Positions 5,018 through 58,003 of a DNA stretch of 64,000 bases are shown one piece after another. The stretch's first letter is position 1. Every line of letters starts with the position of its first letter. Origin of the DNA: Dehalococcoidia bacterium (lineage in GTDB: Bacteria > Chloroflexota > Dehalococcoidia > Lucifugimonadales > UBA3495); contig OZ219748.1 in the NCBI GenBank assembly GCA_964291335.2, positions 609,479-673,478 of the forward strand. The letters are read 5' to 3'. Below the pieces are notes generated by a model, which saw only the letters and a program-made list of their open reading frames with translations, did not search any database and had not been told where the DNA came from. The position numbers and the translations under genes are program-made.

Positions 5018-6220
5018 ATGTCAACCGCTAACCCTTTCAATTACGAAGGCCTGTATTCAGCGCAATCGGTGTCCGTTGCCCGGGGCGAAAACCGCCACGC
5101 CAAATACGACTTTGCTGTAGCCTACCCGGACCCGGACACCTTGCCTTTGGCGGGGCTGGCCGAAGCCACCCGCCGGGCCCTGGCACGGGAAGGAAAGGGC
5201 TTGGCCCTGTATCCGGTCTCGGCCGGCCTGCCTTCCCTGCGGGAATGGGTGGCCGACAAGCTGGCCCGGGACCGGGAAATGACCGTCAGCCCGGACAACA
5301 TCGTGCTGACTTCCGGTTCCGGAGAAGCTATTGCCATGCTTATCGCTGCCCTTACCGACCCGGGCGACGTGCTGCTTACCGAGGAATACGTTTACCTGGG
5401 CACCTTGCGGGCCATGCAGCGCTTTGGCGCCGACGTCCGCAGCGTCAAGTGCGATGACCAGGGCCTGATCCCCGAGGAGTTGGAAAATACCCTGGCAGCG
5501 GTGGCTGCTGAAGGCAGGAAGGTCAAATTCCTCTACACCATTCCGGTATTCCAGAACCCTCTGGGTTGGACTATGCCGTTGGAACGGCGAGTGAAGACCC
5601 TGGAAATTACACAACGCTACGGTGTTCCGGTCCTGGAAGATGATTGCTACGTGGACTTGCGGTTCGAAGGGGAAGGGGTTACCTCCATGCACTCCCTGGA
5701 CGATACTGGGCGAGTGCTCTACGTGGGGTCTTTCTCCAAAATAGTGGCGCCGGGGATGCGCCTGGGATACCTGGTCGCCCCCGGCGAGGTGCTCCAACGG
5801 GCGATGAGTTTTAAAGGCGGCGGGGGCGTTAATCAGTTCGCGGCGCTGGCGGTTCAGGAATACGCCCGGGAAAATATGGAGCGGCATATTGACGAGCAGA
5901 ACCAATCGCTGCGGCTCAAGCGGGACGCCATGCTGTCGGCTCTGGGAGAGAACTTTGGCAGCGCCGCCCGGTGGAGCAAGCCCGAGGGCGGGCTGTACCT
6001 TTGGCTGGAGCTGCCGGAAGGAACCGACCTGGCCGGCCTGCAAGAGCAAGCCTTCAATGAGGGGGTAGGCTACTATAACGGAACCATGTTCTCTCCGGAA
6101 GGTCGCGGCGCCAACTGCGCTCGCCTGTGCTTTGGCTATCCTGCCGCGGAAACCGTTTCGGAAGGCATAGCGGAACTGGCCCGCATATTTGAGCGGCACG
6201 GGATACTTGGGGGCAAATAG
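5018..6220 (+). CDS. PLP-dependent aminotransferase, class I/II (AAT fold type I)
   Basis: 400-aa ORF with a PLP-lysine context SFSKIVAPGMRLGYLVAP and LTSGSGEAI. AAGGAGG lies upstream of the ATG. Confidence 0.8.
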   Translation: MSTANPFNYEGLYSAQSVSVARGENRHAKYDFAVAYPDPDTLPLAGLAEATRRALAREGKGLALYPVSAGLPSLREWVADKLARDREMTVSPDNIVLTSGSGEAIAMLIAALTDPGDVLLTEEYVYLGTLRAMQRFGADVRSVKCDDQGLIPEELENTLAAVAAEGRKVKFLYTIPVFQNPLGWTMPLERRVKTLEITQRYGVPVLEDDCYVDLRFEGEGVTSMHSLDDTGRVLYVGSFSKIVAPGMRLGYLVAPGEVLQRAMSFKGGGGVNQFAALAVQEYARENMERHIDEQNQSLRLKRDAMLSALGENFGSAARWSKPEGGLYLWLELPEGTDLAGLQEQAFNEGVGYYNGTMFSPEGRGANCARLCFGYPAAETVSEGIAELARIFERHGILGGK

Positions 6221-7667: not shown

Positions 7668-7829
7668 AGAGCCGTTTCACCTTCGGCTATCGGCGCTCCC
7701 CTGTCGGGATACGGCAGGTTGCCCCACTGCCCATTGCAAAATCAGACGCGCGGCGCATGCAGATAGCTTAATCATCAACCAGCCGTTCCTGAAATCACCA
7801 TCCACATACTTTGCGTTGACAACGAGGCA

Positions 7830-15429: not shown

Positions 15430-16515
15430 TCAAAACCCGGTCAGGCGGCCCTGGTCGCCGGGCTCTTCGGCTCCTTTCCAGAAACGGCCCAGATGCTCGT
15501 AGGCATGGCGGGTAGCCATGCGTCCCCGGGGGGTGCGTTCCAGGAAACCCAGCTGCATCAGATAAGGCTCCCAAACCTCCATCACCGTGTTCGAATCCTC
15601 GCTTATTGAGGAGGCCAGGGTTTCCAGGCCCACCGGCCCGCCATTGAACTTGTCGATAATGTTATTGAGCAGCTTGTGGTCTGCTGCGTCCAGCCCCAAC
15701 TGGTCCACCCGCAACCGATCAAGGGCCTCCTGCGCCACCGCGCCGGTTATCTCGTTATCGGCCAGCACCAGCGCGTAGTCTCTGGTACGCTTAAGCAGCC
15801 GATTGGCAACGCGCGGGGTGCCCCTTGACCGGGCGGCAATCTGGGAGGCCCCCGCAGCATCGGCGGTAACGCCCAGGATAGCCGCCGACCGCTGTACGAC
15901 CAGTTCCATATCCGGCTGGTCGTAGTATTCCAGCCGGAAAACCGAGCCGAAACGGTCGCGAAGGGGCCCGCTAATCAGGGAAAAGCGGGTGGTAGCCCCG
16001 ATTAAAGTGAAGGGGCTGATACGCAGGTTTATGCTGCGCGCCGCCAGCCCTTTCCCGACCATCCAGGAAAGGAAGAAATCCTCCATGGCTGAATAAAGCA
16101 CTTCCTCTACTACCCGGTGCAGCCGATGAATTTCGTCAATAAACAGAATGTCGTCGGGCTGCAACGCAGTAAGGATGGCCGCCATATCGCCGGCGCGCTC
16201 AATGGCCGGGCCGGAGGTTACCTTGATGTTGACGCCCATTTCGTGGGCAATGATATGGGCCAGGGTGGTTTTGCCCAAACCCGGGGGGCCATAAAGTATA
16301 ATATGATCCAGCGGTTCGCCGCGCTGCCTGGCCGCCTGGATGCCAATGCTCAAGTTATCTTTGACCGGAGACTGGCCGACAAACTCGGCGAGCCGCCGCG
16401 GCCGCAGCGAAACGTCCAGCGGGACATCCTCCTGCTGGGCGGCGTCAGAGACTATTCGTTCTTGCGGCGCGGCGTTGCTTTCTAAATCAGCCAAAACGTA
16501 CCTGAAAGGCGCCAA
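15430..16515 (-). CDS. ruvB: Holliday junction branch migration helicase RuvB
   Basis: [12 protein letters not shown], Walker [18 protein letters not shown], and sensor and winged-helix regions typical of RuvB. Confidence 0.95.
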
Positions 16516-16616
16516 TGGGCGGTGGACAACGGCGCCGGAAGGCTTGCGGGCAGGAACTTCCCCTGCGGCTCATTCTAGGGTGGGCCGGTTCAAGCGTCAA
16601 GGAATGCCGCGTCAGG

Positions 16617-16764
16617 GGTATTCCCAATGCGCGTTGGTGTATCGTTCCCCCGCCCACGCGGGGATAGACCGCGAGCGGTATTCCCAATGCGTGTTGGTGT
16701 ATCGCTGCGGAGCGAAGTCCGGGGAGAGCATTAACCGGTATTCCCAATGTGTGTTGGTGTATCC
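16617..16764. repeat. 60-bp-period array: three 28-nt conserved units separated by two unique 32-nt segments (CRISPR-like geometry, no cas genes in window)
   Basis: Units GGTATTCCCAATGCGCGTTGGTGTATCG occur at 16617-16644, 16677-16704 (1 mismatch) and 16737-16764 (3 mismatches). Each has an internal hairpin CCAAT/GTTGG. The unique segments are 16645-16676 and 16705-16736. Confidence 0.7.
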
Positions 16765-16844
16765 CTTTAGGCCGGGAACCGGCCCGGGGACTGCCGGGTC
16801 GCCCGAAGCGTATCGGGCGGAACCCGGCATGCCCACCGGTCAGG

Positions 16845-18890
16845 TCAGGCGGCCTGCCGCCGCCGGTACAGATACACCCCGCCGGCAGCCAGAGCTACCA
16901 CCACCAGCCCAATTACTACCCACAGCAGCCAGTTGATGCCGCCCGGTTCTTCCGGCGGGGCCGGCGGCATCGGCGTCGGCGGTATGGCCGTCGCCGTCGG
17001 GGGCGGTACTGGCGTGGCCGTGGGTTCCACCTCGGCCAGGGCCGGGGCGGCCGTCGTGGCCGTCGACTCCGGGCGCACCGCATCCAGGGCGCGGTCCGGC
17101 AGCAGGGGCGTGGCCGTCGGCGCAGTCGTGGCCGTAGCTGTAGCTGTGGGCCGGCTGGTGGGCATCGCCGTGGCCGTGGGCTGCGCCGGCGTTGTTGCCG
17201 TGGCCGTGGGCGCTGGGGTGGCCGTTGGCGTGCGCATTGCCAACGGCGTCGGCGTCCGGGTGGGTACTGCCCGCCGGGTCGCCGTGGGAGTCCGCAGCAG
17301 CATTTCCGCCGGCAGCATGGTCGGCGTTGGCGTGCCGGTGGGCAGCGCCGGCGCTGTTGCCGTGGGCGTCCACATTGCCACCGTGGGTATGGCCGTGGGC
17401 GTCGCCGTCGGCGTGTTGGTCGGCGACGCCGGCGCGGTGGTGGCCGTCGGCGTGGGCGTGCTGGTGGCCGCTGCCACTACCCGGCGGGTCGGCGTCGGGG
17501 TCGGCATATCCGCCGGGGACGGTAGGTAGCCCTGAACCACTATGGGGTGCGGCGTATTGGTGGCTGTGGGCGTTGGCGTGTTGGTAGCCGTGGGCATTGG
17601 CGTGTCGGTGGGTGTGGGCGTGTCGGTGGCTGTGGGCGTGGGCGTGCTGGTGGCCGTGAGTGTTGGCGTGTCGGTGGGCGTGTTGGTGGCCGTGGGTGTT
17701 GGCGTGTTGGTGGGCGTGCTGGTGGCCGTGGGTGTTGGCGTGTTGGTGGCCGTGAGTGTTGGCGTGTCGGTGGGCGTGTTGGTGGCCGTGAGTGTTGGCG
17801 TGTCGGTGGGCGTGCTGGTAGCCGTGGGCGTGGGCGTGTTGGTGGGCGTGCTGGTGGCCGTGGGTGTTGGCGTGCTGGTAGCCGTGGGCGTGGGCGTGTC
17901 GGTGGGTGTGGGTGTTGGCGTGCTGGTAGCCGTGGGCGTTGGCGTGTCGGTGGGTGTGGGTGTTGGCGTGCTGGTAGCCGTGGGTGTGGGCGTGTCGGTG
18001 GGTGTGGGCGTGGGTGTATCGAAGGGCGTACTAGTCGCATGGACTACGGACCAAGGGCTATTGCCGGCGTCATTGACTGCCCGTAGCCGGAACTGGTAAT
18101 CGACCCCGTTTTCCAGCCCGGTTATAGTGTAGCTGCGGTCGGTCTCCTTGACGGTAACCACCGGGCTGCTGTCGGGCCAGCTTTCGCCCACTTTGCGATA
18201 CTGGAATTCGTACCGGGTTACCCCGGCGGTCAAGGGGACATAATGGACGGTTGCCTGCTTATCCCCGGCGTCCACTCGAGGTAATCGAGGCACCTCCGGA
18301 GGGCTCGGCGTTGAAGTGGGCGTCGGTGTGGGTGTATTTTCATACGTAGTGTCCGAAAGGGATATGGACCAAATGCTATTGCCGCCGTCATTGATCGCAC
18401 GCACCCGGAACTCGTAAGTCGTGCCAGCGTCCAGCCCGGTTATGGTGTAGCTGTTACTAGTGTCCTTGACTGTGACCGTGACGGTGGCGCCGCTGCTGGG
18501 CCAGCTTTCGCCCACTTTGCGATGCTGGAATTCGTACCGGGTTACCCCGCTAAGGACCTCATGATTGATGGTTATCTGCCGATCCCCGGCGACAGTCCCT
18601 TCGAGGGCCGGCTGAGGAGGTGGGGTCAGCGTTCCCGTCGGCGTTGGGGTGGGCGTCGGCGTATCCGTTGGCGTGCTGCCCTGGGCTTGCAGCGGTGTCG
18701 GCGACCCGGTGAAGGACAGGGTCAGTAAAAAAGGCCCGGCCAGCAGGATGACGAGCGACAGGGCCAGCCCCGGCAGGTTTCGGTCAATTCTCCGTAGATA
18801 GCCGTTCAGCCCAGCCCAAACTCGGGGGGGGGGGGGGGGGGGGGGGGTATTCATTCCGGAGCCGGGGCGGTGTCCGCCTTTATCTGCCAT
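16845..18890 (-). CDS. Cell-surface protein: N-terminal leader with poly-Pro, signal/anchor helix, two fibronectin type III domains, Thr/Pro repeat stalk, conserved C-terminal module with TM anchor
   Basis: 681 aa. [25 protein letters not shown], then [18 protein letters not shown]. Two Fn3-like units ([14 protein letters not shown]...[14 protein letters not shown] and [14 protein letters not shown]...[14 protein letters not shown]). [11 protein letters not shown] repeats. C-terminal [36 protein letters not shown] lies 7 nt upstream of the ATG. Confidence 0.85.
17545..18020 (-). repeat. Coding tandem repeat (Thr/Pro-rich, [11 protein letters not shown]-type units)
   Basis: Visible periodic gtgggcgtgttggtggccgtg-type units on the + strand. 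All six frames are open here, which creates spurious track ORFs. Confidence 0.8.
18824..18847 (-). repeat. Homopolymeric tract, G24 on + strand (C24 on coding strand), within the 5' coding region
   Basis: Counted directly: 7+10+7 G across 18824-18847. It encodes T-P7 in the leader of the 16845-18890 gene. Confidence 0.9.
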
Positions 18891-18958
18891 AGCTTACCTC
18901 GTCAGGATATTGGTTTGGTTGAAGCAGCCCTGTTCCCGTCTGCTGGTTGCGGCTATGG

Positions 18959-18991
18959 ATTTTAGCAGAGAAGTTCCGGCGGGGGAATACC
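18959..18991 (-). promoter_or_regulatory. Promoter-like module shared with the paralog: TATTCCC-N15-TGCTAAAAT
   Basis: The - strand reads GGTATTCCCccgccggaacttctcTGCTAAAAT, about 65 nt upstream of the ATG at 18890. The same architecture and spacing occur at 25399-25429. Confidence 0.4.
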
Positions 18992-19204
18992 CTGCGGCCC
19001 GGGCTTTTATTTGCTCCGGCTGGTGGGGACGCCCGGTTCCCGGGACGAAGTGGTAGTGGCGCTGGCCGCAACGGTAAGTCTGCCGGCTGCGGGAGCGTCC
19101 GTATTTGGGCCGCCAGTTGGCGCCGCAGCGGGGGCATTCCGTCCCGGAATGCTCCGGGTTGGGCCATGCTGCTGCCTCCCGGCGGTCTGATTTCACGGCG
19201 AACC

Positions 19205-19249
19205 CGGTTATACACTTTACCAACGCATGTTGGGAATGCCGCGTCAGGC
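19205..19249. repeat. Inverted, diverged copy of the 28-nt array unit plus a 16-nt exact match to 16601-16616
   Basis: TATACACtttaCCAACGCatgTTGGGAATgCC compares with the reverse complement of the array unit, CGATACACCAACGCGCATTGGGAATACC. GGAATGCCGCGTCAGG is identical at 19233-19248 and 16601-16616. Confidence 0.6.
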
Positions 19250-19445
19250 GCTTTCTCCCCGGCGTGGTTAAACGGCAGCGGTTATTTGACACCGACCGGT
19301 GAAACGGGAGAATAATGTAAATCCGGCCAATTTACGCCCGGACGGTCAAGTTGAAAATCTCTCGCCGCCAATTATAATTGGCTTCAGGCGTCTCCGGCCT
19401 GAATCAGGCCCCAGCTTCCAGTTGAACCGCGAGGCGGAATCTATA

Positions 19446-25398: not shown

Positions 25399-25429
25399 TA
25401 TTCCCTTATCGGAGCTTTTCTGCTAAAGT
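25399..25429 (+). promoter_or_regulatory. Promoter-like module shared with the paralog: TATTCCC-N15-TGCTAAAGT
   Basis: gcTATTCCCttatcggagcttttcTGCTAAAGT, about 68 nt upstream of the ATG at 25497. It has the same spacing as the module at 18959-18991 (- strand). Confidence 0.4.
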
Positions 25430-25496
25430 TAACAACCGTAGCCCCGCTGACGGAAAATACTCATTGGACCAAGTCTGCAACCTGACGAGGCAACCT

Positions 25497-25565
25497 ATGG
25501 CAGATAAAGGCGGCCACCGCCCCGGCTTTGGAATTACCCCCCCCCCCCCCGAGTTTGGTGGGTAA
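25497..25565 (+). other. 22-codon leader ORF homologous to the N-terminus of the paralog, out of frame with the main ORF; stop overlaps the main ATG (TAATG)
   Basis: ATG at 25497 with GAGG 7 nt upstream, encoding [22 protein letters not shown]. The paralog begins [25 protein letters not shown]. One extra C would read ...[15 protein letters not shown] in frame with 25565-29293. Confidence 0.7.
25537..25550 (+). repeat. Homopolymeric tract C14 in the leader of the second surface-protein gene
   Basis: Counted directly: 4+10 C across 25537-25550. Confidence 0.9.
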
Positions 25566-28500
25566 TGCGAATGCGACACTTGCATAGAATTAACCCAATC
25601 CTGCTTGGGCTGGCCCTCATCGCCCCCCTCATCCTCGCGGTGATGCTCGCCTCCCCCGGACGCGTTGGCGCATCAATCCTCGCCTCCTTCGCCAACCAGT
25701 CCGCCGTCCCGTCCGCCCCAACCGGCTTCAACGCAACTGCCGGCCAAAGCAGGGCAAACCTTTCCTGGACCAACCCCAACAACGACACCATCGACTACTA
25801 CGAATACCAGCAGAAAGTGGGAGACGCCAACTACGGCGCCTGGGCGGAGATTCCCAACTCCCACAAAGACACCACCAGCGCCCGGATAACCGGCCTCGCC
25901 GCCGGCGTCGCCCACAAGTTCAAGATTCGCGCCAGAAACTCCGCCGGCCCCGGCGCCGCGTCCGCAGAGGCAACCGCAACCCCCTCCGCCCCATCGCTAA
26001 GGCTCTTCGTAACCGCCGGCAACGGACAGGCAACCCTCAAATGGGAACTCTCCGGCCCCTACGCAAGTGTTTCGACGTGGAAAATTTGGAGTTACTCCAT
26101 TTTTGAGAATAGGTCGTGGTCCAACGAGATAGAGATATGCGCACAAGTTTCGAATGCGGGATGCCCCAGCCGCAGAACACATACGGTATCCAGCCTCACT
26201 AACGGGCAAGAGTACCAAATCGAAGTCATTCTGACCCCCAGCAACCTCGTCAGCGGGCTTGGAAGCTTCGGTGGGTATTCCAACGCAGTGACCTTCACTC
26301 CTTCGGATTCGGCGCCCGTCCCGTCGGGAACCCCCGCCGCCCCCGCCGGCTTCACCGCCACCGCCGGCGGCAGCAAAGCAACCCTCAGCTGGACCGACCC
26401 AGGCGATGAAACCATCAAAAACTGGCAGTACCGCAGCAAGCGAGGCGGACGCACCTACGGAGACTGGACAGACATCCCCAGCTCCGACAAAGATACGACC
26501 ACCTACGAAGTCGCCGGCCTCGCCAACGGCACGGCGTACGCCTTTCAGGTTCGCGCCGTCAACGGCGCCGGCTACGGCGCCGAACCCGCAGCGCAGAGCG
26601 CCACCCCCGCCGACGCACCGACGCCTACCCACACGCCTACCCACACCCACACGCCGACGGCCACACCTACCGATACCCCCACGCCTACCCACACGCCGAC
26701 GGCAACGCCCACCGACACGCCTACGCCTACCCACACCCCCACGCCTACCCACACGCCGACGGCAACACCTACCGACACGCCCACGCCGACGGCAACACCT
26801 ACCGACACGCCCACGCCGACGGCAACACCTACCGACACGCCCACGCCGACGGCAACACCTACCGACACGCCCACGCCGACGGCAACCCCAACCGATACAC
26901 CCACGCCGACGGCAACACCTACCGATACACCCACGCCGACGGCAACCCCAACCGACACACCCACGCCGACGGCAACACCTACCGATACGCCCACGCCGAC
27001 GGCAACACCTACCGATACGCCCACGCCGACGGCAACACCTACCGACACGCCCACGCCGACGGCAACACCTACCGACACGCCCACGCCGACGGCAACACCT
27101 ACCGATACGCCCACGCCGACGGCAACACCTACCGACACGCCCACGCCGACGGCAACACCTACCGATACGCCCACGCCCACCGCTACACCCACCGACACGC
27201 CCACGCCTACCGCTACACCAACCGATACGCCCACGCCTACCGCCACACCTACTGATACCCCCACGCCTACCGCTACACCCACCGACACACCCACGCCCAC
27301 CGCTACACCCACCGACACACCCACGCCTACCGCTACACCAACCGATACGCCCACGCCTACCGCCACACCTACTGATACCCCCACGCCTACCGCTACACCC
27401 ACCGACACACCCACGCCCACCGCTACACCCACCGACACACCCACGCCTACCGCCACCCCAACCGATACGCCCACGCCTACCGCCACACCTACCGACACGC
27501 CCACGCCTACCGCTACACCAACCGACACCCCCACGCCCACCGCTACACCAACCGATACCCCAACCCCGACGGCAACACCCACGCCCGGAGGCGCACCCAC
27601 CGACACGCCCACGCCTACCGCCACACCTACTGATACCCCCACGCCCACCGCTACACCCACGGATACCCCCACGCCTACCGCTACACCTACCGATACGCCT
27701 ACGCCTACCGCCACACCTACCGATACGCCCACGCCTACCAATACACCAACCGACACCCCCACGCCCACCGCTACACCAACCGATACCCCAACCCCGACGG
27801 CAACACCCACGCCCGGAGGCGCACCCACCGACACGCCCACGCCTACCGCCACACCTACTGATACCCCCACGCCCACCGCTACACCTACCGACACGCCCAC
27901 GCCCACCGCCACACCTACCGATACCCCAACCCCGACGGCAACACCCACGCCCGGAGGCGCACCCACCGACACGCCTACTGATACCCCAACCCCGACGGCA
28001 ACACCCACGCCTACCAACACACCCACCGATACACCCACGCCTACCAGTACGGCCACGCCAACCCCAACGCCGACCGCCACCCATACGCCCACGCCGGACC
28101 CGCAGTCCATCACCAGCGGCGCCGGGACGGAAGCAGACCCGTACATCATCCGGGCGGCGAACCAGGATATCGAGGCGGCGGCGTTTTTCAGGGAACGGGT
28201 GGCCTCTGACGGCGGCCGCCTGGTGGCAACCTGGTTCCGCTTTGACCTGACCGAGCCGATGGCCGGGCGGTTTGGCGCCAGCATAATGACCGACCCGACG
28301 GGCCACAACATCGATACCCATTTCCGGGCGTACAACGCCGCGGACGAGGAGCTGGCGAAGATTTCGTTGGTACGCCCGGAGACGCCGCAGATGCTGAAGA
28401 CCGACGAACTGACCGGGGTGAGCTACCTGACGCTCCGGCTGGAGGACTGGGACCAGCCGAAGATAACCAGCCTGAAGGTGCGTTTCACCACGCAGCCGCC

Positions 28501-29293
28501 GGCGACTCCCACGCCTACACCGACCAACACGCCTACACCGACCAACACGCCCACACCGACGCCTACACCGACCAACACGCCAACGCCAACGCCCACACCG
28601 ACCAATACGCCCACGCCGCCGCCCGGAGTGGTGCGGAGCGCCCCCATTCGGCGGGCGGCGGCAACCCCGACGCCGACCCGCCGGGTGGTGCGGGCAGCAA
28701 CCCGCACGCCGACGCCCACCGCAACCACCACCGCAACCCCGACGGCCACTGCCACCAGCACGCCAACGGCGGCAGACAGGCCCATAGCGGCAATGCGGAC
28801 GCCCACGGCGACCCGGACGGCCCGGCTCGCCGGCGCCGCCACGCCGACCCGGCGGCCGCTGGTCATGCTGCGGACGCCAACCGCCACCTTGCGGGCAATA
28901 CCCACCCGCACCCGGCCCCCGGCAGTAATGCGGACAGCAACGGCCACGCCAGCGCCGACCGCCACCGCCACAGCGATGCCGACCAGGCGGCCCAGCCCGA
29001 CGGCCACCGCCACCGCAACGGCCGTCCCGTTGCTGCCGGACAGCGCCCTGGACGCAGTACGCCCGGAGCCGACGGCCACGACGGCCGCCCCGGCCATGGC
29101 CGCCGCCGAACCGACGGCCACGCCAGTACCCCCGCCCACGGCCACGCCAATACCGCCGACCGCCACGCCGACGCCAGCCACGCCGCCGGAACCCGGAGCC
29201 GGCATCAACTGGCTGCTGTGGGTAATCATCGGGCTGGCGGTAGCCGCGGTAATCGCCGGCGGGGTCTATCTGTACCAGCGGCGGCAGCAGTAG
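25565..29293 (+). CDS. Large cell-surface protein: signal/anchor helix, three Fn3-like domains, about 490-aa Thr/Pro decapeptide repeat stalk, globular beta-sandwich-like domain, conserved C-terminal module with TM anchor
   Basis: 1242 aa as drawn. [25 protein letters not shown]. Fn3-like units ([17 protein letters not shown]...[14 protein letters not shown] and [17 protein letters not shown]...[14 protein letters not shown]). ([10 protein letters not shown])n repeats. Domain [15 protein letters not shown]...LKVRFT. C-terminal [30 protein letters not shown]. The biological start may be 25497, depending on poly(C) length. Confidence 0.85.
26617..28098 (+). repeat. Coding tandem repeat, 30-bp period ([10 protein letters not shown] decapeptide), about 48 units with sub-families and higher-order units
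   Basis: One sub-family, acacctaccgacacgcccacgccgacggca, runs about 26750-27170. A second, acacccaccgacacgcccacgcctaccgct, runs about 27170-27560. The insert ccaaccccgacggcaacacccacgcccggaggcgca (TPGGAP) recurs near 27556, 27786 and 27926. Confidence 0.9.
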
Positions 29294-29380: not shown

Positions 29381-29667
29381 CTTTAATGGCCGGCCCGGTT
29401 CCGCCGCCTCGGCGGCAAAGCGGCCAGCGCAGCTCCCCTGAAGCCGGGCTGGCGAAAGAAGGTAGTGAGTAATGCGCCGAAGACGCTGCCCGGCAAGCCG
29501 GGGCAGCGCGTCCGGGCCGTCCGTAACGGGCCGGATAAAAGGGATCGAAGGGATAGCAGGGTTCAGAGGCCGGAGACTACGGCGTGCCGGGCAATCAGCC
29601 GGTCAAGGGCTGTTCTGCAATTCCGCTATTTACGCTTCCAGCAGTTCGGCTGCGCCGGTATCGCCGG

Positions 29668-29857
29668 CGGCAACGGCAACGGCCATGGCCGAACCCACGG
29701 CGACGCCAGCGCCACTCCCGACGGCCATACCGCCCACCACCCGGCCCCGCCGGCAGAAACCGGCGGCGTCAACTGGCTGCTGTGGGGAATCATCGGGCTG
29801 GCGGTAGCCGCGGTAATCGCCGGCGGGGTCTATCTGTACCAGCGGCGGCAGCAGTAG
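29668..29857 (+). pseudogene. Frameshifted duplicate of the 3' end (C-terminal module plus TM anchor) of the surface-protein gene
   Basis: One frame reads AMAEPTATPAPLPTAIPPTT. Another reads [33 protein letters not shown]. The last roughly 95 nt plus about 20 nt past the stop are identical to 29218-29312. There is no upstream gene body. Confidence 0.7.
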
Positions 29858-29951
29858 TCCAGCAAGGCCGACCCGGCTGACCAGCCGGTCATTGACGGGC
29901 CGGTCAGCCGGCGAATATGATGGCTGCATCATTGCAGTTGCGAGGTTGGCG

Positions 29952-57757: not shown

Positions 57758-57795
57758 TAAAAAAAGAGCAACCGCTGCGGCTATTTGGCGGTTGC
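57758..57795 (-). terminator. Intrinsic terminator acting as the riboswitch expression platform
   Basis: On the - strand: GCAACCGC, a 12-nt loop, GCGGTTGC, followed by TCTTTTTTTATT. It lies between the TPP aptamer and the thiG start. Confidence 0.7.
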
Positions 57796-57807
57796 TACCG
57801 GTTGACG

Positions 57808-57905
57808 TCTTTTCCCTACGCCGGCATTACCCGGATCAGGTATAGACGGTCGGCGGCGACTTTCGGCCACCCTCTCAGCCTGGCTTGCCCAAGCTCCCGC
57901 CAGAA
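57808..57905 (-). promoter_or_regulatory. TPP (THI-box) riboswitch aptamer
   Basis: The - strand reads ...CTGAGAgggtggccgaaagtcgccgccgaccgtctatACCTGATCCGGGTAATGCCGGCGTAGGGAaaag. This matches the conserved CUGAGA and ACCUGAUCUGGAUAAUGCCAGCGUAGGGA cores, upstream of thiG. Confidence 0.88.
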
Positions 57906-58003
57906 CAACTATATGCTCAGTCTTGGTAATACTCTAGCACGGCGAGGAACAGTTCGTCAAACCGCCGGGCGCCGGCGCCCGGCGGTAAGTCAGCCCCCGA
58001 TTT

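Follow-up and report, generated by a model that had tools for sequence, protein, structure and literature searches.

In this uncultured Dehalococcoidia lineage, two long cytosine tracts, C24 and C14, probably serve as hypermutable slipped-strand switches of the contingency-locus kind for two paralogous, lineage-specific genes that encode FN3 surface proteins, here named gene 1 and gene 2. Switches of this kind are already known from pathogens such as Neisseria, and the arrangement of the tracts suggests that the Dehalococcoidia case joins them. The positions of the tracts and of the features around them are listed in Table 1, and they refer to the window, which is the whole 64-kb stretch of DNA that was analysed.

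Tracts, leaders and gene products

A run-length census of the 64 kb identified C24 and C14 as the only homopolymers of 8 bases or more in the window, the next longest C or G run being 7. The genome has a GC content of 62% and C runs of this length are not expected by chance; dinucleotide-preserving shuffles gave an expectation of 0.03 for the C14 word, against 12 overlapping occurrences at both tract sites. The tracts occupy homologous positions at the 5' ends of two paralogs encoded on opposite strands, and they count as a single evolutionary origin because the genes are paralogous. The leader that contains the tract is the best conserved segment of the pair, with 86% identity versus 60-70% in the flanks, and a small hairpin (GGCGG-NNN-CCGCC) is kept in both leaders and ends 18 nt before the tract. 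Tract lengths differ between the paralogs (24 vs 14, values that depend on homopolymer calling in the assembly and could be wrong by at least one base), and the flanks are conserved on both sides.

Table 1 Features of the two paralogous genes in the window
Feature	Position	Strand	Remarks
Gene 1, 681 aa	16845..18890	-	Leader, signal/anchor helix, two FN3 domains, Pro/Thr-rich stalk, C-terminal TM anchor
Gene 1 signal/anchor helix	about 18711-18767	-	
Gene 1 homopolymer, C24 (G24 on the + strand)	18824..18847	-	In leader codons; encodes T-P7
Gene 1 leader coding sequence	18848..18890	-	ATG 18888-18890; hairpin GGCGG-ACA-CCGCC inside
Gene 1 conserved 5' cassette	18891..18985	-	From alignment with gene 2 upstream region
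Gene 1 Shine-Dalgarno GAGG	18897-18900	-	Within conserved 5' cassette
Gene 1 putative extended -10, TGCTAAAAT	18959-18967	-	Promoter assignment tentative
Gene 2 conserved 5' cassette	25400..25496	+	
Gene 2 putative extended -10, TGCTAAAGT	25421-25429	+	
Gene 2 Shine-Dalgarno GAGG	25487-25490	+	
Gene 2 leader ORF	25497..25565	+	TAA 25563-25565 overlaps main-ORF ATG 25565-25567 (TAATG, 25563-25567)
Gene 2 homopolymer, C14	25537..25550	+	In leader ORF
Gene 2 main ORF, 1242 aa	25565..29293	+	Intact; signal peptide, FN3 domains, very long PT repeats, further domain
Orphan 3' end of the family	29650..29858	+	TM anchor and stop; internally frameshifted; near-identical to gene 2 3' end

The products of both genes are of surface type: an N-terminal signal/anchor helix precedes FN3 domains (Pfam E 1e-23) and a Pro/Thr stalk, and the C-terminal end holds a TM anchor, which is the same in gene 1 and gene 2 and is closed in gene 1 by an RRRQ tail. 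A lipoprotein signal is absent from both products. Their bodies are highly variable and repeat-rich, with PT repeats and differing numbers of FN3 domains. The near-identity of the orphan 3' copy to the 3' end of gene 2 points to recombination or duplication within the family.

On the coding (minus) strand gene 1 reads ...ATGGCAGATAAAGGCGGACACCGCCCCGGCTCCGGAATGAATA-C24-GAGTTTGGG..., and the tract begins 43 nt past the A of the ATG (18890). The sole two in-frame start codons of the leader, codons 1 and 13, both lie upstream of C24, and no in-frame ATG, GTG or TTG is present between the tract and the helix, so that gene 1 needs both the leader ATG and a tract length divisible by 3. When the tract length was altered in silico, C21, C24 and C27 gave products of 680-682 aa, and C23 or C26 gave a product ending EFGLG-stop; in the wrong frames the stop is reached 5 (C23/C26) or 13 (C22/C25) codons after the tract, and every truncated product terminates ahead of the hydrophobic helix. 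The seven prolines of the tract are all encoded by CCC, which makes up only 35-44% of Pro codons here, and the other P-runs within gene 1 and gene 2 have mixed codons. Given its all-CCC prolines, the gene 1 tract is a nucleotide-level feature.

These observations agree with a preliminary description of the same DNA, which had reported, within a 681-aa ORF, a G24 run that reads C24 in the coding direction, starts about 43 nt after the ATG and encodes T-P7, had assigned the ORF to a surface protein, and had predicted that a change of one or two bases would truncate it before the helix; the last point was borne out in silico for C22, C23, C25 and C26. It had also recorded a paralog with the same leader, a C14 tract and an out-of-frame state, all of which holds, but had missed that the leader TAA overlaps the ATG of an intact main ORF.

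In gene 2 the tract sits 40 nt downstream of the leader ATG, and at C14 the leader is out of frame with the main ORF; C12, C15 and C18 would fuse the two. With its leader out of frame gene 2 is not plainly OFF, and termination-reinitiation may still yield expression. Because the main ORF owns an ATG, control by the tract is perhaps not strict. Gene 1 shows four of the marks of a translational contingency locus, namely a repeat beyond chance, a 5' position without a rescue start, length polymorphism and a surface product, and in gene 2 truncation without a rescue start is present in part, its own ATG overlapping the leader stop.

A consensus promoter scan passed over the conserved TGCTAAAAT/TGCTAAAGT element because a good -35 is missing. 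No Rfam match was obtained at E<=1 in 16400-19400, nor any at gathering threshold near either leader, and fold z-scores of +2.5, +0.7, +0.6 and -0.7 gave no significant mRNA structure at the 5'UTR and leader; a structured RNA or riboswitch in this region was ruled out on these two grounds. A promoter-spacer switch in the window was also rejected, as both tracts come after the ATG, by 43 nt in gene 1 and by 40 nt in gene 2.

Related genomes and metagenome contigs

Gene 1 and gene 2 are both missing from eleven related genomes. In these genomes ruvB and fakA are adjacent, as are RR and the gene that follows it; the gaps measure about 240-570 bp in most genomes and about 1.1 kb after RR in L002. 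The exact insertion sites of gene 1 and gene 2 in the window are the ruvB|fakA gap and the gap between RR and the next gene. By this synteny the two are accessory, lineage-specific surface genes. No C/G run >7 is present in the syntenic loci of these related Dehalococcoidia (368,572 bases), and 80 loci (1.27 Mb) hold zero C/G runs of 10 or more. Long runs are thus missing in relatives, and the tracts are not a compositional habit of the clade.

A protein from another genome, P0007, has an identical leader and identical residues after the tract, with 3 prolines where gene 1 has 7 and gene 2 has 4, and is still an in-frame fusion. Its tract probably differs in length from that of gene 1, the PPP in the protein pointing to C12. 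Comparison of tract lengths among related genomes, proposed in the preliminary description along with the claim that the length really does vary, gave 24 versus 14 between the paralogs, probably a third length in P0007 (P3 vs P7), and 11 syntenic relatives without either gene. P0007 is the sole homologue found that carries the leader, in a search in which gene calling skews discovery toward in-frame copies. It is 107 aa in length and shares one 2.75-Mb contig with P0001, so that the homologue looks fragmented and may be a pseudogene or the product of an error-prone assembly. The leader DNA pattern ATGGCNGAYAARGGNGGNCAYCGNCCNGG had 0 matches in the genome, metagenome and viral contig collections, which indicates that the leader is rare or that its carriers lie outside these collections. 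A protein-based locus search of JGI metagenomes with alignment A3 returned no relative, exact-protein look-ups of gene 1, RecG, P0001 and P0007 returned no record, and those for window genes returned no other assemblies.

A second arrangement was found on metagenome contig L081, which is tied to the window by protein similarity alone: its proteins are 57-70% identical to gene 2 across the signal peptide and the first FN3 domain, and the family there has a TM-anchor tail of the same kind as in the window genes. Two identical cassettes, TTGACA-A-G17-TG-GATAAT, lie upstream of two tandem family members, and the spacer measures 20 nt at G17 and would measure 17 nt at G14. Judged by the boxes that flank them, the G17 tracts are a classical promoter-spacer design, workable solely via a change in DNA length. 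A leader-ORF reading of the L081 tract was rejected and the promoter-spacer reading preferred, because translation from the upstream ATG does not run into the main ORF in any frame; the promoter cassettes of L081 and of the window were also compared for homology, and their alignment was weak and unconvincing. The promoter pattern had 0 matches in viral contigs. Contig L082, which comes from the same sample and assembly as L081, carries a C18 tract within a clearly decayed FN3 paralog, and L083 and L084, weaker FN3 homologues from other samples, carry no tracts.

Proposed switch and competing explanations

Slippage rate climbs with tract length, and homopolymers at the 5' end lead to reversible inactivation (PMC2831843; PMC5953494). 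In the proposed mechanism, the conserved promoter and 5'UTR cassette would transcribe both genes, and ribosomes would initiate at the conserved SD-ATG of the short leader and then traverse the C tract. In gene 1 the leader would be joined to the signal peptide, and the full protein made, only at tract lengths that are multiples of 3, so that strand slippage during replication, by adding or dropping C's at a presumably high rate, would turn expression of gene 1 ON and OFF in a heritable and reversible manner. Three outcomes are predicted for gene 2: fusion of leader and main ORF in frame 1 (C12, C15, C18); a leader stop overlapping the main ATG in frame 2 (C14, the present state), from which termination-reinitiation may follow if the two ORFs are coupled; and, in frame 3, a leader running 33 nt beyond the main ATG and probably occluding that start. 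Signal-peptide cleavage is predicted downstream of the leader and its prolines, and would leave both of them out of the mature protein.

RNA polymerase slips on long homopolymers, for example in Thermus dnaX and IS elements, and on so long a run such slippage could blur the ON and OFF states. As the operative process it would produce mixed mRNAs at any DNA length, with a roughly constant in-frame fraction and low, non-heritable expression; this would account for the intact 1242-aa ORF of gene 2 behind an out-of-frame leader, and the hairpin in both leaders could be taken as a further sign of it. We nevertheless consider it unlikely. Programmed slippage sites are usually short and conserved in length, whereas the tracts here have lengths of 24, 14 and probably 12 in differing frame states, and the hairpin, 18 nt before the tract, is too distant for the RNA:DNA hybrid at the tract start. 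Transcriptional slippage is best documented on A/T runs and less so on C/G runs, the G17 promoter-spacer tracts of the related family cannot act in this way, and slippage at the DNA level would happen regardless.

It is similarly improbable that the tracts are unstable but non-adaptive, the outcome of runaway slippage on a recently duplicated or laterally acquired cassette that leads to random inactivation and decay. Signs of decay do exist: the leader of gene 2 stands out of frame, downstream of that gene lies an orphan 3' fragment with a frameshift, the homologue in another genome appears fragmented, L082 has its C18 in a decayed paralog, and both window tracts are of single origin. Against this, the 681-aa and 1242-aa ORFs are both intact, no other part is as conserved as the leader with its SD and ATG, and the frame layout makes expression of gene 1 dependent on the tract. 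The window and its relatives are without other long tracts, which argues against a general repair deficiency, and the L081 G17 run is placed precisely between perfect promoter boxes, twice, and looks selected.

The preliminary description had raised a translational role for the prolines through EF-P, and ribosomes do stall on runs of at least three prolines when EF-P is absent. Under that explanation the leader would be regulatory, acting through ribosome stalling, EF-P dependence or an arrest peptide, and the C run would be incidental coding. Proline is encoded in all three frames of the tract, and the gene 2 leader is a separate upstream ORF that abuts the main start, both of which would suit a stalling leader. 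The evidence on balance disfavours it, and we give it even less weight than the two preceding explanations: the CCC-only codons (7/7, vs 35-44% usage and mixed codons in other P-runs) and the unconserved number of prolines (7, 4, 3) tell against it, the z-scores given above (+2.5, +0.7, +0.6, -0.7) leave no significant mRNA structure for a stalled ribosome to remodel, and the L081 promoter tracts are left unexplained. Those tracts make sense only by a change in DNA length and for that reason favour the slipped-strand switch over poly-proline or EF-P. Stalling is more likely a side effect that reduces ON-state output as the tract lengthens.

Spurious insertion of poly-G or poly-C during sequencing or assembly is very unlikely, for although long homopolymers are error-prone across platforms, L081 and L082 come from one assembly and the names of the related contigs are, we presume, typical of long-read metagenome assemblers, the tracts lie inside coherent sequence at homologous sites in opposite-strand paralogs with conserved flanks, the prolines stand at the same place in a protein from an independent assembly, and the L081 tracts fall exactly between the -35 and -10 boxes. 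The exact length of the tracts is doubtful; their existence is not.

Comparison with known systems and implications

Neisseria pilC poly-G/C and opa CTTCT repeats lie in the signal-peptide coding region and cause translational phase variation. The slipped-strand switch proposed here resembles them in having a 5' coding repeat, placed before or inside the export signal of a surface or adhesion protein, at which a change of length shifts the frame and cuts the product short, and in the presence of several paralogs per genome in different frame states. It differs in phylum and lifestyle, belonging to an uncultured Dehalococcoidia and not to a human pathogen, in the position of the tract within a conserved leader of its own that precedes the signal peptide, and in the out-of-frame leader of gene 2, whose stop falls on the ATG of an ORF that can be started independently. 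C24 is at or above the top of the range in Neisseria, for which genic G/C tracts of 9-21 are recorded (PMC5953494).

The L081 arrangement has its counterparts among promoter-spacer switches, such as porA poly-G, Bordetella fim poly-C and Mycoplasma hyorhinis vlp poly-A. The poly-C tract of Neisseria opc is described as a homopolymer switch of this type (Sarkari 1994, as cited in PMC3960869). Like the opc-type switches, the L081 G17 tracts occupy the promoter spacer, in L081 flanked by perfect TTGACA and GATAAT boxes, whereas the window tracts lie downstream of the start codon.

The Mycoplasma Vlp, Vsa and Vsp systems are families of variable surface proteins with conserved 5' cassettes and repetitive bodies. 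The family in the window similarly combines a conserved leader, signal region, C-terminal end and putative promoter with variable, repeat-rich bodies, and the orphan partial copy in the window and the tandem array in L081 extend the likeness. Unlike the Mycoplasma proteins, its members are anchored by a C-terminal TM helix and have no lipoprotein signal, and site-specific inversion or cassette exchange is not evidenced in the window family.

In Listeria monocytogenes a 5' poly-A tract in inlA causes reversible truncation of a surface adhesin, a process proposed to be general in prokaryotes, in which 5'-biased homopolymers are found generally (PMC2831843). The window genes share with inlA a 5' homopolymer on a surface-protein gene, and differ from its short A/T runs in having very long C runs.

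More tentatively, and with somewhat less than even confidence, homopolymer switching may be a family-wide means of controlling laterally mobile adhesins of the FN3 type in Chloroflexota that are uncultured and probably host-associated, with at least two architectures, which would be the promoter-spacer G tract and the leader-ORF C tract. If so, the leader version would be a three-state device (signal-peptide fusion, coupled upstream ORF or occluding upstream ORF), and strong fluctuating selection would be expected on the symbiont cell surface, for example from host recognition, phagocytosis or phage. It would also be the first contingency-locus system described in Chloroflexota: a literature search brought up no paper that describes phase variation by homopolymers in Chloroflexota or in sponge symbionts, in keeping with the earlier remark that the design was not known to have been described in Chloroflexota-like lineages.

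Contingency loci are a hallmark of bacteria in unpredictable and discriminating environments, such as those shaped by host immunity and phage, and to our knowledge they have been studied almost solely in pathogens and commensals that grow in culture. That FN3 surface proteins show this design, with very long tracts, paralogs in different frame states and a promoter-type version in a related family, suggests that this uncultured Dehalococcoidia lineage hedges its surface display. A less likely additional role for G24/C24 is that, as a G-quadruplex or i-motif, it also stimulates recombination among paralog cassettes, as the Neisseria pilE G4 stimulates recombination. In sponge-associated Chloroflexota, genes with FN3 domains are reported to be enriched and laterally exchanged (PMC8163846). 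If the organism is host-associated, gene 1 and gene 2 would offer concrete genes for the study of symbiont-host recognition, and no cultivation would be needed to obtain their tract-length spectra, which can be read directly in long-read metagenomes. Depending on a base count that assemblers get wrong, gene callers will annotate such genes incorrectly, as truncated, as mis-started or as pseudogenes.

C tracts, leader and reading frames of gene 1 and gene 2

The preliminary description had reported a G24 run, C24 on the coding strand, within a 681-aa ORF and about 43 nt after its ATG. Both points were confirmed in gene 1, which encodes an FN3 surface protein: the minus strand of window positions 18600-19100 reads ATGGCAGATAAAGGCGGACACCGCCCCGGCTCCGGAATGAATA, 24 C and GAGTTTGGGCTGGGCTGAACGG, and the distance measured on that strand is 43 nt. 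A census of all homopolymers in the 64-kb window (61.7 % GC) returned only two of at least 8 nt, this tract and the C14 of the paralogous gene 2, the next longest C or G run being 7, and dinucleotide-preserving shuffles of the window gave an expectation of 0.03 for the C14 word. The long C tracts of the window are far beyond chance, and at 24 bases that of gene 1 should be extremely unstable. Slippage becomes steeply more frequent as a tract lengthens, and homopolymers at the 5' end inactivate genes reversibly (PMC2831843; PMC5953494); the genic G/C tracts recorded in Neisseria measure 9 to 21 (PMC5953494).

Features of the window and of two metagenome contigs carrying long tracts
Sequence	Feature	Position	Strand	Remarks
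Window	Direct repeats, 27 nt	16617-16763	-	three copies of GATACACCAACRCRCATTGGGAATACC; exact 60-nt period, 33-nt spacers
Window	Gene 1	16845-18890	-	681 aa
Window	Gene 1 tract	18824-18847	-	C24 (G24 on plus strand); codes Thr-Pro7; ATG at 18890
Window	ORF upstream of gene 1	18894-19292	-	CPRCG...YRCGQRHYHF motif
Window	Gene 2 leader ORF	from 25497	+	
Window	Gene 2 tract	25537-25550	+	C14
Window	Gene 2 main ORF	25565-29293	+	1242 aa
Window	Gene 2 non-repetitive domain	~28150-28500	+	residues ~870-1010; ~135 aa
Window	Orphan 3' fragment	29650-29858	+	360 nt downstream of gene 2
Window	TPP riboswitch	57795-57910	-	RF00059, 61.5 bits, above gathering threshold
L081	Promoter-type tracts	1884-1900; 7726-7742		G17 each
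L082	FN3 linker tract	6159-6176		C18

The products of both genes contain FN3 domains (Pfam E about 1e-23) and long Pro/Thr repeats, have near-identical C-terminal ends, and start with a charged and then hydrophobic segment followed by LQA-QG (gene 1) or VGA-S (gene 2), which is predicted to be a cleavable signal peptide. On account of these common features they are type-I surface proteins and paralogs of each other, whose ends are conserved and whose bodies vary. The non-repetitive domain of gene 2, which is flanked by PT-repeat blocks, had no match in Pfam or NCBIfam.

The C14 of gene 2 is preceded by the same leader, a short conserved coding stretch, as the C24 of gene 1; the leader pattern ATGGCAGATAAAGGCGG[A/C]CACCGCCCCGG has exactly two matches in the window and none in shuffles. 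The alignment of the two loci begins ~95 nt upstream of the ATG, spans the tract and reaches into GAGTTTGG and the hydrophobic helix, with the leader as the best conserved segment (86 % versus 60-70 % for the flanks). Common to both are the Shine-Dalgarno CCTGACGAGG, located 6 nt before the ATG, and an upstream element, TGCTAAAAT/TGCTAAAGT, a putative extended -10 that was not called by consensus promoter scans. Besides a 5-bp hairpin (GGCGG-NNN-CCGCC), folding of the 5'UTR and leader RNA gave no stability beyond shuffles (z -0.7 to +2.5), and an Rfam search of these regions gave no match.

Frame outcomes were computed by varying tract length in silico. Within the first 110 codons of gene 1, ATG, GTG or TTG in the main frame is found only at codons 1 and 13, both before the tract, and therefore no gene 1 product arises without in-frame reading of the tract. 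Both other frames of gene 1 truncate, as had been anticipated for a change of one or two bases, and the paralog was rightly described as out of frame at C14. The TAATG arrangement of gene 2 may allow termination-reinitiation, which would leave this gene low rather than off.

Outcome of tract-length changes in silico
Gene	Tract lengths	Outcome
Gene 1	C21, C24, C27	full protein, 680-682 aa
Gene 1	C20, C23, C26	product ends ..EFGLG-stop
Gene 1	C22, C25, C28	truncated product, second wrong frame
Gene 2	C12, C15, C18	leader-main ORF fusion, 1264-1266 aa
Gene 2	C11, C14, C17	leader ends ..EFGG-stop; TAA overlaps ATG of main ORF (TAATG)
Gene 2	C10, C13, C16	leader runs 33 nt beyond main-ORF ATG

Homologues and tracts on other contigs

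The degenerate leader DNA pattern was matched in none of the collections of genomes, metagenomes and viruses. With residues 1-75 of gene 1 as the query, an exhaustive HMMER search gave a single true relative, protein P0007 of another genome (E 7.5e-28); its 2,751,835-bp NCBI/ENA contig also encodes an FN3 fragment, P0001. A comparison of tract lengths in related genomes had been proposed earlier, and here P0007 agrees with gene 1 at every leader and post-tract residue and is still fused in frame, with three prolines versus seven, a difference to be read with the bias of gene calling towards in-frame copies and the seemingly fragmented state of the homologue. If its prolines are encoded as in the window, the tract would be C12. 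Gene calling split the homologue into at least two pieces, P0007 (N-terminus, 107 aa) and P0001 (FN3 part, 347 aa, with near-identical repeats of 95 aa), and it represents either a pseudogene or indel errors in a repeat-rich gene, which bears on the trust placed in homopolymer lengths of such assemblies.

The N-terminus of gene 2 retrieved P0011 (73 % identity) on ENA contig ERZ24894574:ctg4038l (L081), on which two or more members of the family lie in tandem; they have the signal peptide, FN3 domains and PT stalk of gene 2 and end in the tail ..AGGYGYYIYRQRQPRRS-stop. Each tandem FN3/PT/TM-anchor gene has one G17 tract, placed ~70 nt upstream of the ATG in identical cassettes (..CCCC-TTGACA-A-G17-TG-GATAAT-AAGCC..), and the repeat unit, cassette included, is 91 % identical over 1.48 kb. 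The tracts sit exactly between a perfect TTGACA and GATAAT; with G17 the spacer measures 20 nt, and G14 would bring it to the optimal 17 nt. The layout is that of textbook promoter-spacer phase variation, as described for the poly-C of Neisseria opc (PMC3960869). A leader-ORF type of tract was rejected for L081, as no upstream ORF through the tract reaches the main frame.

On a further contig of this sample (L082, ENA ERZ24894574:ctg5585l), a C18 forms part of the linker between two FN3 domains in a decayed (frameshifted, stop-containing) paralog of an FN3-rich autotransporter. This autotransporter (beta-barrel C-terminus) and a nearby T6SS gene (VipB) suggest that L082 is apparently from a different organism than L081. 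Between L082 and gene 2 the FN3 domains share 42 % identity, which hints at lateral exchange of the FN3 module. All 5 of the 5 long tracts are attached to FN3 surface-protein genes, with none elsewhere in about 1.4 Mb examined.

Probable slipped-strand switching and alternative explanations

The C tracts are probably slipped-strand contingency switches, the best-supported reading of the sequence and the one first proposed, which agrees with the frames, with the lack of start codons that could rescue translation, with tract lengths that differ from copy to copy and with the promoter-type tract in the related family. Replication slippage would change tract length, and the conserved SD-ATG leader of gene 1 would be joined to the signal peptide only when the number of C is divisible by three, with switching rate and expression states as predictions. 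The leader and prolines would be lost with the signal peptide, so that the tract would be free to vary and the mature protein would be unchanged. When mRNA is left untranslated, an exposed poly(C) offers Rho an excellent place to load, and OFF frames might also be transcriptionally polar via Rho.

By analogy, gene 1 and gene 2 would be functionally of the Neisseria pilC/opa type, in which a coding-region repeat lies ahead of or within an adhesin export signal and paralogs are in different frame states; the related contig L081 has the opc/porA/fim design. The features of a translational contingency locus found here are a hypermutable repeat, length polymorphism with conserved flanks, a surface-exposed dispensable product (predicted), and a 5' repeat with truncation in other frames, complete in gene 1 and partial in gene 2. 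No report of homopolymer phase variation in Chloroflexota was found in the literature, in line with the preliminary description, and the phylum, the tract length, the dedicated leader and the TAATG arrangement of gene 2 are the notable aspects.

RNA-polymerase slippage, which may coexist with a DNA switch, is improbable, as it fits neither the variable lengths nor the promoter tracts; those of L081 cannot be explained by transcript slippage or by poly-proline. A non-adaptive runaway tract on decaying genes would accommodate the orphan 3' fragment and the fragmented homologue, but is just as improbable, since both large ORFs are intact, the leader is conserved and gene 1 is built to depend on its tract. 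Still less probable is a poly-proline leader acting through EF-P-dependent stalling, the translational alternative raised earlier, which is contradicted by codon homogeneity and variable proline number: the gene 1 prolines use CCC in 7 of 7 codons, ten housekeeping genes from the window encode 35 % of their prolines by CCC and the two FN3 genes 40-44 %, all other Pro runs of gene 1 and gene 2 have mixed codons, and the proline count varies by copy (7, 4 and 3). These all-CCC codons and variable counts, together with the lack of a stable fold or Rfam match, argue for selection on the homopolymer as DNA rather than on a poly-proline or structured-RNA device, and any stalling of ribosomes at the prolines is probably incidental. 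An artefact is highly implausible, since the tracts are on opposite strands, their flanks are conserved and prolines occupy this position in an independent assembly too, all of which places their existence beyond doubt and leaves exact length open to error.

Genomic setting

The best relatives of the window RecG are from Dehalococcoidia MAGs (57-67 % identity), and the regions of gene 1 (16845-18890) and gene 2 (25497-29293) were compared with loci L001-L015 and L036, where 11 related Dehalococcoidia MAGs share a syntenic block. The gene order in the eleven relatives is ruvB(-), fakA degV recG(+), response regulator(-) and two conserved genes(+), and both intergenic gaps measure ~240-570 bp in most of them; in L002 the one behind the response regulator reaches ~1.1 kb. 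Of the two window genes, gene 1 occupies the ruvB-fakA gap and gene 2 the gap following the response regulator. No C or G homopolymer of 10 or more was present in 80 fetched loci (1.27 Mb), and 19 Dehalococcoidia loci (368,572 bases) had no C/G homopolymer above 7, no FN3 relative and no leader. Gene 1 and gene 2 are therefore lineage-specific accessory insertions, and the tracts are neither a clade-wide habit nor a sign of general repair deficiency.

The orphan fragment repeats the final ~70 codons of the family with an internal frameshift and takes in the TM anchor, the stop and ~25 nt of the 3' flank. Its last ~110 nt match the end of gene 2 almost perfectly, and it is a third-paralog remnant or recombination scar. 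The 27-nt direct repeats lie in the interval from the stop codon of gene 1 to the ruvB promoter, are absent from the loci of the relatives, and resemble a CRISPR array or iteron set in their spacing. The TPP riboswitch is unrelated to the tracts. Adjoining the gene 1 promoter on its upstream side is an ORF that shows sub-threshold similarity to the N-terminal zinc-binding domain of IS1/IS1595 transposases (E 0.011, below cut-off) and may be a relic of an element that delivered gene 1 into the ruvB-fakA gap.
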